From positions 2,542,001 through 2,606,000 of the forward strand of contig JAYWIR010000016.1 in the NCBI GenBank assembly GCA_036172245.1: a stretch of 64,000 nt of DNA, given 5' to 3'. The DNA is from Raillietiella orientalis (Eukaryota). The notes beneath the pieces are model-generated. The model saw nothing but the letters and a program-made list of their open reading frames with translations, was not told where the DNA came from and searched no databases. Positions within the stretch are counted from its first letter, which is position 1; every line of letters starts with the position of its first letter. The translations under genes were made by a program, and so were the position numbers. Of the stretch, positions 21,070 through 25,444 are shown piece after piece.

Positions 21070-21171
21070 GCGAGCGTCGCGTCTTCGCTTTAGCGACTGC
21101 TCCGAATCTCCGAAAAAATTATGCGCTAGGTATGTCTTGATATCCATACCTCTCGAACACGTGGTTCAAGT
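21070..21171 (-). pseudogene. RNU11: 5'-truncated U11 snRNA copy (about nt 29 to the end), joined directly to the 3' end of a Tx1-like retrotransposon
   Basis: Minus strand ACTTGAACCACGTGTTCGAGAGGTATGGATATCAAGACATACCTAGCGCATAATTTTTTCGG... is about 85% identical by eye to 25416-25315. It lacks the 5' AAAAAGGGC end. Confidence 0.8.
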
Positions 21172-24100
21172 TTTCCCCAGTCCGACCAGCGGTGGGGTGG
21201 ATTTATTGAGCAAGCAAGAAACATGCAAACAAAAGACACTTTCACTTCGACCATTGCTCGGTCGGTCTCCTTCGTGGCTTTGCGGCCCTCGCGGGCAAGT
21301 CACTGTACCGTTCTGGCGGCGCACTGGGCTATCCTTAAGCAGAGCTGGAGGGTGCAAGATGGCACTCCTCCGCACCTATCAATGACGATTTCTCTGATCA
21401 GAAGTCCTTGCAGGATATATCTGGCGTTGCAGGTGCTGCCCATCGTCAGCTTCGTCCTCCTGATGAGAATGCTCCTCAGAAAGAAGGCGACGATCATCCG
21501 CACGGTGGGATTGTAGTGGGGCACGCCGCCGTCTTCGCTCTCCAACAGTCCCCGGAGGATTTCCAGACACGAGGTGTTGCCCAAACCGATGGCTCGCCGC
21601 ACCACTTTCCAGTCCCGGATAAGGGTGCGGCAAGTGTACATGTGCATGTTGTTTTCGGTCGATCCGCAAGCCGGACACTGGTCGTCGTCGGGGTTCCCGG
21701 TCCAGCGTCGGAATCCCGCACAGGATGCCTCCTTGATAAAACATCAGGAGGCAATCCTGAACTTCCGGCGGTAGAGGGGGCCTCCAGAGCACCGTCGCGA
21801 TGGCCTGCGGGTTGACTCCCGGTTCGCCGAACCTGGCCCGGATCGTGCTCAGCGCTTCTTCCGCGGTGACTGCGGCCAGCATCTGGAAGTTATCGGCTCG
21901 GGCATCACTCTGGAACACTGCGCTCCCTGGGCTTGCCAGAGCTCGCGAGCCCTGTGGGTTACCCAGCCTTGCATCGAGCGCTTGTTCGCCAGGACTCGCA
22001 CCGCTTGGATGACTCCGCTGGTGTCTAGTCGCCCGCAGTCTCTTAGAGTCACGTCGCCTTGTCGACGCAGCCAAATGAGCGTTTTCCAAGGGACCCGGAT
22101 GAACCATGGGATCACCTTGACGAGCTTCCTGTCCCATAATTCCCTGCTTCGCGGGACGATCTTTAGCTTCAGCTCCATCACGAGACTATGGAGCCTCGGC
22201 CAAGCGGAGTCGACGACTTTCCACTGCCAGGGTTTGTGCAACATGGCGGACACGAGACCGTCGCTTTCCAGCAGCATCCTCGCGTACGCCCTGTGAAACG
22301 CGAACGGCCATTCGTTCCAATGGCTGACGTAGCGGGCGAGCAGCTTAAGGTTCTAAAACTTCACAGAATGCGAGATTTCCCGCATGCCGGTGCATCCTTC
22401 GGTCCTCGGGGGACACAGGTTTTCCCTCTTCACTTTTAGTCTTCTCCCATTCCATAGCGAATCACGCTGGATGTTGGCGAGTTCCTTGGCCACCCTCTCC
22501 GGGATCTTATCGAAGGACGTGGCAAAGAGAAACTTCTTCGCGATCGCTCCGTTCCAGAGGTTGGCTTTGCCTCGAAAGGAGAGGTTCATCCCCCTGTACA
22601 GGTGGGTTTGCTACCTCAGCTTGGCGAGGATATCTTACCATTGCGTGTCGTCCGCCGTGTCTTCCTCTCCGATCGTAACCCTCAAGCATTTGACTCTGTG
22701 CACGATGCGGAAACCGTGGGGGCATAGGACGTTGACGTCCGGGTTCCCAACGGCCAGCAGACAGGATTTCTTCGGATTCACCTTCAATCCTAGTCCGTGC
22801 TCCATGGCATCCAGGATATCGAGGAACGCCTCTTGATCCCATTTGTCGGACATGACAAACAGGAGATTGTCGGCGTAGGCCAGTTACGTGATCGTGTCGG
22901 GTTCTTCTCGATCCAGGGTGATGTCCTTGAGCCACCGCTCGTTGGTCACGAGGGCAGCCACCGCTTCCATGTATATGACGAATAGCATGGGGCTGAGGAC
23001 ATCTCCCTGGCGCACTCCTCTTTCCATTTTAATGTCTTCCGTCGTCAGTCCGTTCACGTGCAGCCGAAAATGGGCTGCTTCCAGGATGCGCTCGACGTGC
23101 TGCAGGAATTTCCGTTGAAAGCCCATCTTACGGAGGATACTCGTCAGCATGCCGTGATCAACCGAATCGAAAGCCTTCTCAATGTCAGCGAGCGCGAGTA
23201 CCAGGTCGTTGCTTAGGATGCTGTTGCAACCCAGCAGGGATCAGGAGCTCTTGTTGTCCCACATGCACCTGCCGGACACGACGCACGTCTGGCTGGGCGC
23301 AATCAACGATTTCAAGGTCCTCTTCAGCCTGTTTGCCCAGATCTTGGCCATCCACTTCGCATCCGAGTTGAGGACGGAAATGGATCTCCACTGGTTGACG
23401 GTGCGGAGGTCGTCGCCGCTCTTCGTGAGCAGCCGCATCCTGCCTCGGTGGAAGGAGGCGGGCGGTCGATTTTCCCTGGCGACGCAGTCCAGCAGCTGGA
23501 GGAATAGGCACAGGCAGGCGGACAGGAAGCGCCGGTAGTGCGTGACGGGCACGCCGCCCGGACCTCGCCAAGGGAGAATTCCACGTCCATTTCCGCGATT
23601 TCTCGGGAGCTCAGGTGCTTGTTCACGCTGCGTAGGATTCGTTGCTGAGCTCTCGGCTCCAGGATTCTCTTTTGAAACAGGTCGGTGTAATGTCGCCTGA
23701 AGAATTCCAGAACCTCCTCCGATGATCGGCACTTTCGGCCGTCGTGGTGGACGTAGAAGATTTCGGTCTGGTGGTTGTTCTTCTCCAGCCGTGCGATATC
23801 CTTCTTGAGCCTGCCATCTAGAAAGCGTCTCTGGTACTCTTGCCAGTACTTGGAGTGAGAGAGATGTCGATGGACGGTCTCCCCGTACGCCTCCTCGCAT
23901 AGTACTCTGTCGCCGTACTGCACGTTAGCGAACACGTGGATCATGTGCTTGAGGACATCCCAGTCGTCCACGAGCTCGATTGTAGTCGTGGACATGATGG
24001 TCTCGACGACGCGCTGGTAAGCGGGGTAGCAGGCGAATTACTCGAACATGCAGAGGAGTGCTGCCCGGGGCTCCGCGTGCTCCCTCCTAGGATTCCTCGC

Positions 24101-25290
24101 CTGCATCCGGAACTTCAGCAGGAAATGGTCCGAGAGCCCGGTGTTCAGCTCCCGGATCCCCTGGATGCGGTTATGGAGGGCCCACGAGTGCAGGACGTAG
24201 TCGATCGGCGTCAAGTTCGCCCGGTGTACGCGAGGGCGAGGGCGACGGCCAGCCGCCGGTAGGCATTGGCTCCACCCATTTCGTTCGGTCGGTCGTCTTC
24301 CCAGCTCATGTTCAGATCACCCACCAGGATGAGAACGTACTTCGCCATGATCTGGCTCTTGACGAGGTCCACAAGGGTCCTCGCGAAGGTTCCCTTCCGG
24401 TTGCGCGGTCCGTAGACGTTCACCACGAACACGGAGACTTTGCGCAGCGTCTGCTCGATGTTCCCATTGAACATCTGAAGTGGCCCCCGGTGCTCATGAA
24501 CACCTCCACCCTTCCCTTAAAATGGCAGGAGTCGGCTCTACTGTCCTGCCACTTGAGGGGGAGGGTGGATGCATCTCTAAATAACGGGGGCCACTCTAGG
24601 TCATCCGCCGGGATGCCAAGCAGCTCTCGCCCCATCTTCGTATACCACGAGGGTGAACGCTTGGGGTCGCGGCGTCTGCCAGTTCCCTCATGGTCCACCC
24701 GCTTAGATCCTTCTCCTTGCCCGCTATCCGGCAGGAGACTTGCCACCTCGGCTTCCGGCTGTTATGAAGCGCCCTTCTCAGGAAGGGCAGCGCCGTGGCC
24801 AGTGGGGTCGTCTCCGCCCACGTGCTTCTGGCAGTGCCCTCGATCATGTTCCGCAGCGTGCAGCGGGTGTAGATGCCGGGACGCAGGCGGTTGCAGGATT
24901 CTCCTCCACTAGGCTGGTTTAGCTTCGCCCACGTGCCAACTGTTTCTTCCGGCCATGCGCTGGAGTTGGCGGGGTTGCAGGCCATCCACCCGTCCTCCTT
25001 AGCCAGGGACGCCATGCGTCCAAGGAGCAGGCCGCATCTTCGAATCTTAAACGTCCCGGCGAAACCCGGGTGAAAATCGGCAGCCGCACTGCCCGTGGGG
25101 GAGGCCGCTGCGTGGTGTCCGAAGGACGTGCATCCCCTACAAAAGTCGAGCTGCTGCCGGGAGGAGGTCACCCGCAGCGGCTGCGTGGCACGTTGGTCGC
25201 GGTTCCGTAGGACGCCGTGAGGGAGGTTGACGTTCCACGCAGCCCCCCTGCGGGCGGTTCGTAGGGGAGCATCGGCACCCCCAACACATT
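21172..25290 (-). mobile_element. Degenerate L1/Tx1-clade non-LTR retrotransposon (ORF1 zinc-knuckle remnant, APE endonuclease, RT, C-terminal region, 3' UTR with AATAAA)
   Basis: Knuckle CRGCTSFGHHAAASP (~25150). EN motifs VVNVYGP, LVGDLN, SDHF. RT motifs WRSISVLNSDAKWMAKIWANRL, DIEKAFDSVDH, GVRQGDVLSPMLF, AYADNL (preceded by an in-frame stop). Several frameshifts. 3' end AATAAATCCACCCCACCGCTGGTCGGACTGGGGAAA. Confidence 0.9.
24479..24595. repeat. ~117-nt imperfect palindrome (MITE-like hairpin) inside the retrotransposon
   Basis: AGTGGCCCCCG...CGGGGGCCACT termini, and inner TCCACCCTTCCCTTAAAATGGCAGGA pairing with TCCTGCCACTTGAGGGGGAGGGTGGA. Confidence 0.75.
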
Positions 25291-25313
25291 GCCTTCCTTT
25301 CGCACGGTGAACG

Positions 25314-25444
25314 TCGGGGCGTCGCGTTTTCGCTACAGCAACTTCCCCGATCCTCCAAAAAAATTATGCGCTAGGTATGTCTTGATGTCCATACCTCTGG
25401 AACGCGTGGTTCCAGTGCCACTAGGTAGACAAACGCCCTTTTTT
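25314..25444 (-). ncRNA. RNU11: U11 minor-spliceosomal snRNA, full length (~131 nt)
   Basis: Minus strand AAAAAAGGGCGTTTGTCTACCTAGTGGCAC-TGGAACCACGCGTTCCAG-AGGTATGGACATCAAGACATACCT-AGCGCATAATTTTTTTGG-...CGGGG...GCCCCG. Carries the recalled U11 hallmarks: 5' AAAAAGGGC (pairs with the U12-type 5' splice site), AGTGGCAC, loop GACATCAAGA, Sm site GCATAATTTTTTGG and a terminal stem-loop. Confidence 0.88.

Follow-up and report, generated by a model that had tools for sequence, protein, structure and literature searches.

How does a retrotransposon come to lie inside a gene for the U11 small nuclear RNA (snRNA), with a complete copy of that gene standing directly upstream of it? The question is raised by a stretch of 64,000 nucleotides (nt) of the Raillietiella orientalis genome (GenBank assembly GCA_036172245.1, contig JAYWIR010000016.1, positions 2,542,001 to 2,606,000), referred to here as the window and numbered from its first letter. 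On the minus strand, a complete U11 snRNA copy is followed by a degenerate long interspersed nuclear element (LINE) of ~4.1 kb and then by a U11 copy without bases 1-28, all in a single shared orientation. An earlier annotation made from the letters of this DNA (the sequence-only reading) had described a candidate U11-targeting retrotransposon of the Tx1 clade, inserted either with a target duplication of more than 100 bp or carrying the 3' part of U11 at its own 5' end. The anatomy of this U11/LINE/U11 block, including the 3' junction within U11, is confirmed by the present analysis. The reading that we prefer, with a probability of roughly 0.45, is that a LINE, now dead, inserted into a U11 gene copy at nt 28/29, and that the complete U11 upstream was probably not born as an identical copy on that occasion.

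A dead LINE between two U11 segments

The complete U11 copy occupies 25315..25443 of the minus strand, 129 nt by alignment to the Rfam family RF00548, for which the gathering score is 39 bits. In a covariance-model search it reached 80.9 bits (E 5e-13) over model positions 1-134, which makes it a member of the family, and the full upstream U11 recognised by the sequence-only reading is thereby corroborated. It bears the 5' end AAAAAGGGC and the Sm-like site AAUUUUUUUGG, and its fold has a z-score of -3.02, with none of 200 shuffles folding equally well. The 5' flank of this copy (25444..25600, minus strand) is home to a putative proximal sequence element (PSE) and has a predicted promoter function; the window holds no further snRNA gene with which the PSE could be compared, and the flank has no significant match elsewhere.

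The downstream copy (21070..21171, minus strand), delimited by Rfam and by alignment to the complete copy, runs from nt 28/29 to the 3' end of U11. Searched alone, 21172-21070 scores 47.8 bits over model positions 25-134 and is flagged as cut at its 5' side, so that both copies exceed the gathering score in the Rfam check that the sequence-only reading had proposed. A wider match, 21244-21070, scores 47.0 bits, with an apparent nt 1-24 that is in fact the 3' untranslated region (UTR) of the LINE, bridged by a long insertion. Because the segment scores higher by itself and is flagged as 5'-cut, the downstream copy is to be taken as a 5'-truncated U11, in agreement with the earlier description of a second U11 starting at about nt 29. 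The LINE/U11 junction lies at U11 nt 28/29, immediately past the LINE tail, and stem-loop II begins with C29, where the junction had indeed been placed before. As AAAA also closes the LINE tail, A28 could belong to either side. Near the 5' end of the LINE, a search for U11 nt 1-28 or for a promoter remnant returned nothing at up to 3 mismatches, the best local matches being at chance level (reached by 91/300 and 53/300 shuffles).

The position of the 3' end of the LINE is supported by a second element in the window. The 3' UTR (21171..21299, minus strand) contains the AATAAA already seen in the sequence-only reading, at 21207-21202, which sits 31 nt ahead of the end of a conserved tail, AATAAATCCACCCCACCGCTGGTCGGACTGGGGAAAA, terminating at 21171/21172. 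At 37571..38990 (minus strand), tblastn and tail alignment reveal a related LINE family, represented by a 5'-truncated copy. This copy has the same tail, in the form AATAAAT-Y-CACCCCACC...GGACT-K-GG-R-GAAA with its end at 37571, and on this basis the first element is delimited at 21171/21172. A tail of ~37 nt is common to both elements while the rest has diverged, which suggests that it is the recognition element of the reverse transcriptase of this lineage. A hairpin formerly proposed for this 3' end finds no support, as the fold z-scores (+0.48 and -0.88) are no better than those of shuffles, though the sequence of the tail is kept in the second copy.

In the body of the LINE, the reverse transcriptase together with the linker occupies 22275..23870 (minus strand), with in-frame stops, and is covered by tblastn matches of 9 relatives (E 1e-27 to 1e-44); the Pfam family RVT_1 matches 23240-22884 at 1e-11 with weaker pieces on either side, three consecutive pieces in one frame, and the reverse transcriptase of the sequence-only reading is borne out by both lines of evidence. 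When the frame is read through its stops (as X), 81 relatives are found at E<=1e-5 among proteins of 1001-2855 amino acids, the best at 3e-42 and 31% identity, and most of these long relatives share PF03372, PF00078 and PF13966, an architecture of the L1/Tx1 type. The best relative among proteins of 314-1000 amino acids is 28% identical. The few relatives with names carry automatic ones, none placing a clade, and no intact or close relative of the LINE exists among the 5.8 billion proteins searched (best 28-31% identity). The C-terminal region (21300..22274, minus strand), broken into three frames and containing a Cys motif CPACG...H...C (~21677-21630), was delimited by homology to the second copy, whose segment ~38945-37749 (minus strand) is 34-56% identical in amino acids to this part of the element in tblastn searches with the element's own pieces; the relatives carry PF13966 there. 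The LINE copy is dead: the 915 codons examined hold 6 in-frame stops, and the reading frame is shifted at least 4 times.

An endonuclease remnant of the apurinic/apyrimidinic endonuclease (APE) type is spread over two frames at 24083..24456 (minus strand), where a profile made from 15 relatives, of which the first 520 residues were used, matches with its positions 97-148 at 24456-24298 (independent E-value 2.3e-5) and with its positions 203-245 at 24211-24083 (2.2e-3). The endonuclease of the sequence-only reading can therefore be mapped, weakly, with Pfam silent at E<=0.1. The first ~96 profile positions, that is, the N-terminal third, are undetectable at the locus. Just upstream of the detectable part, a 119-nt stretch (24479-24595) is 69% identical to the reverse complement of itself (E 4e-05), and may be a rearrangement scar explaining the absent N-terminus. 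By its predicted domain order, with an APE-type endonuclease (a weak profile match) N-terminal to a LINE-type reverse transcriptase, the element is assigned to the L1/Tx1 group among retrotransposons lacking long terminal repeats (non-LTR elements), and the narrower Tx1 label of the sequence-only reading is a putative one.

The coding frames of the LINE are biased at the third codon position (GC3 0.73-0.77, GC2 0.32-0.50), and this property helps to locate the 5' end of the element. Upstream of the endonuclease, 24596..25099 (minus strand) is a coding-like part of a 255-codon open frame, with a GC3 of 0.71-0.75 similar to the 0.76 of the reverse transcriptase frame, and may correspond to the first open reading frame (ORF1) or to the N-terminus of the second (ORF2); an ORF1 in this position is plausible. 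Between it and the U11 3' end lies a GC-rich stretch of ~215 nt (25100..25314, minus strand), delimited by composition, without codon periodicity (GC1/2/3 = 0.70/0.61/0.69), which holds an AAGGCAA (25295-25289), an ATG (25289-25287) and a knuckle-like CX2CX4HX4S motif (25141-25100) and could be LINE 5' UTR, the start of ORF1 or the 3' flank of U11. Since the GC3 bias begins at ~25099 and is absent from the 215 nt before it, the true 5' end of the LINE must lie between 25314 and ~25100. The ORF1 knuckle of the sequence-only reading is a candidate, matched by this motif in a region that has no relatives among 1.84 billion representative proteins and, over the translation of 24596-25300, no Pfam match. 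Clusters of phage-integrase N-termini were also retrieved for 24596-25300, with a best Atlas score of 0.87 (below 0.9), and were treated as noise.

Differences between the U11 segments and the origin of the block

The two U11 segments align without gaps over 98 nt (25416-25319 against 21171-21074) at 86.7% identity, and the 102 aligned nt that extend to the Rfam 3' end contain 16 differences. The pattern of these differences is structure-preserving: six of the 16 fall in core helix positions and all six are compatible with pairing, with a G-C pair changed to U.G in stem-loop II and, in the 3' stem-loop, G-C changed to A-U, A.G to C-G and U.G to C-G. The complete copy keeps 22/23 core pairs and the truncated copy 23/23. 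When 16 random mutations were introduced into one copy (20000 simulations), as many pairs were kept at frequencies of 0.0001 (from full to partial) and 0.016 (from partial to full). The number of differences is informative as well. The 6 stops in 915 codons translate into a LINE divergence since inactivation of ~0.058; had only the truncated copy been decaying, ~6 differences would be expected versus the 16 seen (P(>=16) = 0.0005).

Beyond the gene, similarity vanishes. There is no homology between the outer flanks, and the first 45-84 nt past both U11 ends give no alignment above chance (660/2000 and 818/1000 shuffles reach the score). The sequence-only reading had pointed to similar AAGGCAA flanks behind both copies, and the 7-mer is there, at 21048..21054 (minus strand), 16 nt past the truncated U11, and again 20 nt past the complete one (25295-25289), even if a free local alignment of the flanks is not significant (the 660/2000 shuffles above). 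With its position constrained it is reproduced by 332/20000 shuffles, a marginal result of a post hoc test. It is possibly a 3'-box-like signal or a chance occurrence; the position would suit a conserved 3'-end signal or residual homology. Differences that keep the structure, homology confined to the gene and a divergence greater than the age of the LINE suggests speak together for a pair of U11 lineages that were still functional as they grew apart. With moderate strength, therefore, the two segments look like lineages that diverged under selection for the U11 fold.

This pattern bears directly on the idea of a long target-site duplication. R9, a LINE of bdelloid rotifers, belongs to the R2 type and has a restriction-like endonuclease. 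As excerpted from PMC9977147 (citing Gladyshev and Arkhipova 2009), R9 generates a 126-bp target-site duplication in 28S ribosomal DNA and Dualen a longer one, and the likeness to the present locus is that of a site-specific LINE placed between direct repeats of its target of more than 100 bp. A bottom-strand nick at nt 28/29 and a top-strand nick ~100-135 bp downstream, followed by fill-in, would duplicate nt 29 to the 3' end, and this one step would account both for a complete U11 abutting the 5' side of the LINE and for the absence of nt 1-28 at the 5' junction; the AAGGCAA, similarly spaced after both copies (332/20000 shuffles), could belong to the duplicate. However, copies identical at birth should carry helix-breaking changes, and the core pairs are kept at 22/23 and 23/23 (p 0.0001-0.034). 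If the upstream copy was functional, ~6 differences would be expected and 16 are seen (P = 0.0005), and a duplicate reaching AAGGCAA should be alike between the U11 end and that 7-mer, where the flanks are unalignable above chance. Unlike those of a simple duplication, the repeats here differ at 16/102 nt in a structure-preserving manner. The target duplication of more than 100 bp envisaged in the sequence-only reading is accordingly disfavoured, by a test of moderate power made at one locus: a plain long duplication is the route that fits the fold, flank and divergence results least well, and we consider it quite improbable.

The same results can be read from the side of RNA. Reverse transcription at a site outside any U11 gene could have proceeded from a U11 snRNA back to nt 29, then switched to LINE RNA and finally to a second U11 snRNA, neither U11 segment being a gene. 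A full-length snRNA fused to a LINE 5' end in matching orientation is a classic template-switch product and reflects a general property of LINEs, as stated in part of PMC4476161, and Tx1 families and SINEU acquired U1 or U2 heads by template switching according to passages of PMC4494074. The inter-copy homology stops at about the mature U11 3' end, and the helices are intact in both copies, as would be the case for copies of functional RNAs. Such a chimera would nevertheless require the rare U11 snRNA twice, would make the placement of AAGGCAA after both copies a matter of chance, and should have left both copies to decay and break helices after insertion, of which few breaks are seen. A duplication bracketing 25443-21070 is unconvincing, with best matches of 10/11 nt (133/3000 shuffles) and 11/15 nt (259/3000) that are not collinear. 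Moreover, the flanks are GC-rich for 0.8-1.4 kb against a background of 31-38%, so that the site is atypical of random ones. We hold this origin to be very improbable.

In the account that we prefer, insertion of the LINE into a U11 gene copy, integration would have occurred by target-primed reverse transcription between nt 28 and 29, leaving U11 nt 29 to the 3' end right behind the LINE tail. The simplest route would start from two neighbouring U11 paralogues, the downstream one being hit by the LINE. Its promoter and first 28 nt would have been lost as a target deletion, and the upstream gene would have kept the host supplied with U11. The intact neighbouring U11 would explain why the insertion was tolerated; since no remnant of the promoter or of nt 1-28 is found, this route must assume the deletion. 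Insertion into a pre-existing U11 gene pair, which the sequence-only reading had itself named as the scenario that would refute it, is thus a possible origin of the block. As an alternative route to the same outcome, one that would answer to the element-borne U11 part of the sequence-only reading, the element transcript may have begun at a U11 promoter and so carried a U11 head, and homology with nt 1-28 of the target may have guided the joining of its cDNA end, rebuilding a whole U11. In favour of the account, LINE-coded sequence begins no more than 215 nt past the complete U11. The DNA shows the anatomy, the place of the junction, the decay of the LINE and differences that preserve the structure; how the events followed one another, whether through a deletion or a head, and what the upstream U11 may do are inferred.

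Several points weigh against this account. The set of core pairs was picked post hoc, and with all 27 Rfam pairs the simulated frequencies are only 0.034 and 0.003 (same directions). If both copies decayed neutrally, 11.9 differences would be expected and the 16 seen become unremarkable (P = 0.15), a situation in which the preserved helices would be unexpected. All statistics of the U11 comparison come from 102 nt, and the whole case from one locus. The paralogue route requires an unobserved deletion of promoter and first 28 nt that ends within ~215 nt of the first gene, and the head route an assumed read-through past the U11 3'-end signal. The presence of U11 paralogues in the genome is likewise an assumption, and the promoter upstream of the complete U11 is putative.

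Target specificity and related elements

It could be asked whether the family as such is specific for U11. A self-perpetuating cycle can be envisaged in which the element, transcribed from a U11 promoter behind a U11 head, would nick its target at nt 28/29 and, by homology joining, restore an intact U11 every time it inserts; the product of such a cycle would be precisely the structure observed. The distance from the U11 end to the first ATG or coding-like sequence is at most 215 nt and possibly only ~25 nt, and so short a 5' stretch leaves no obvious long 5' UTR promoter. Precedents come from the Tx1 clade, for which passages of PMC4494074 and PMC3706591 list Keno in the U2 snRNA, Mutsu in the 5S and Dewa in the transfer RNA (tRNA) spacer. 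These elements share with the present one the APE-type LINE constitution, a 3' junction at a defined position in a small RNA gene and the orientation of that gene; the differences are that the gene here is U11, that a single copy is available, that membership reaches only to the L1/Tx1 group, and that the upstream side is a whole gene, where the others have the 5' part of the target only.

Against a U11-specific family, the case rests on a single copy, with no intact or close relative among the 5.8 billion proteins. U11 is normally a low-copy gene and would be a poor niche. A 3' junction inside a gene of 129 nt is a striking landing place, yet it is one event picked from very many scanned windows, and selection would purge insertions into U11 wherever no intact copy was left. 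Furthermore, the sole other member of the lineage in the window, the related family with the same tail, stands in unique non-U11 sequence: there are 0 Rfam matches at E<=1 in 36500-40000, and its 3' flank is not U11 and is unique within the window. Because this second copy lies outside U11, the lineage taken together also has members at other sites. Within one clade, families often differ in target, however, and the second copy therefore leaves the specificity of the first family unsettled. Searches for further copies gave 0 matches to the 37-nt tail motif in public metagenome contigs, 0 to its 29-nt version in genome contigs and in viral contigs, and 0 to a motif spanning U11 stem-loop III to the Sm site in public metagenome contigs. 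For comparison, the criterion of target specificity given in a portion of PMC4494074 is that the same target flanks more than 20% of copies. Taken together, a family specific for U11 seems unlikely.

Should it exist, a site-specific retrotransposon could occupy a low-copy essential gene without causing its loss, and the locus would represent a natural case of homology-assisted, gene-regenerating integration, relevant to R2-derived tools for targeted insertion. If it is instead a one-off insertion beside a U11 paralogue, the LINE is a curiosity, and the main message becomes that U11 is, or once was, encoded by several genes in this arthropod.

As far as literature searches reach, a U11-targeting LINE is not in print: no publication was found that links U11 to a target-specific mobile element, and no relevant pairing with Tx1 or non-LTR was returned. 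The portions available of publications on Keno/Tx1, Dada and Utopia do not mention U11, and the known mobile elements of the snRNA-gene type use high-copy targets (U2, U1, U6, 5S and tRNA). Among these systems, Utopia is presented in such partial sources as a LINE targeting U2, and Dada, in an excerpt of PMC3706591, as a group of DNA transposons targeting U6, U1 and tRNA. Like the present element, both reside in small RNA genes, with the differences that their enzymes and targets are other ones and that they rely on a high target copy number.

Two further comparisons concern the 5' side of the element. SINEU, Tx1-2_Crp and Tx1-11_Crp have heads derived from U1 or U2 (PMC4494074, in part), and these headed families, as well as the snRNA/LINE chimeras of PMC4476161 (also in part), resemble the block in having a full-length snRNA on the LINE 5' end in the same orientation. 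They differ from it in lying at non-snRNA targets without a 3' snRNA fragment, whereas here the 3' end abuts U11 from nt 29 onward. R2 and R1, in turn, are said to be transcribed along with their target gene and to complete 5' joining with the help of homology in a passage of PMC4494074 (citing Eickbush 2000 and Fujimoto 2004), and the likeness would be a possible reliance on the host-gene promoter and on upstream target sequence in the transcript for integration. The host gene here would differ in being an snRNA gene of RNA polymerase II with its own 3'-end processing.

Surroundings of the block

The U11/LINE block and ~0.8-1.4 kb on each side of it have a GC content of 50-67%, in a background of 31-38%. 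The outer flanks (20300-21069 and 25444-26900), at 50-63% GC, have no codon periodicity, no Pfam families in their ORFs and no mutual similarity, and may be an island belonging to the U11 locus or old repeats. No tandem repeats were found in 19000-28000, no other small RNAs at the junctions and no tRNAs within the window.

Exons of an MRP-L28 family gene (32270-32833, minus strand, 1.7e-19) and of a Roquin gene with ROQ_II (52667-53260, plus strand, 7.9e-30) are found nearby, which indicates that the block sits in a gene-containing region. A GC-rich block (60-66%) covers window positions 1-7000. Long open frames overlap in it on the two strands, without obvious genes, and the block may be a promoter region resembling a CpG island, or consist of old GC-rich repeats. 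It lies upstream of a large exon with an RA domain (8104-9279, plus strand) from a homologue of ANKFN1/'wide awake'. The best relatives of this exon are from arthropods: a sea spider and an ostracod match it over its full length with 33-34% identity, and only the RA part reaches 50-65%, so that the host is an arthropod with no near sequenced relative in the protein collection. Finally, 44601-45128 (plus strand) holds an unbroken frame of 175 codons that combines a zf-CCHC_3 knuckle (1.8e-07) with a lysine-rich tail. It resembles SREK1IP1, and so may represent a retrocopy or a gene without introns.

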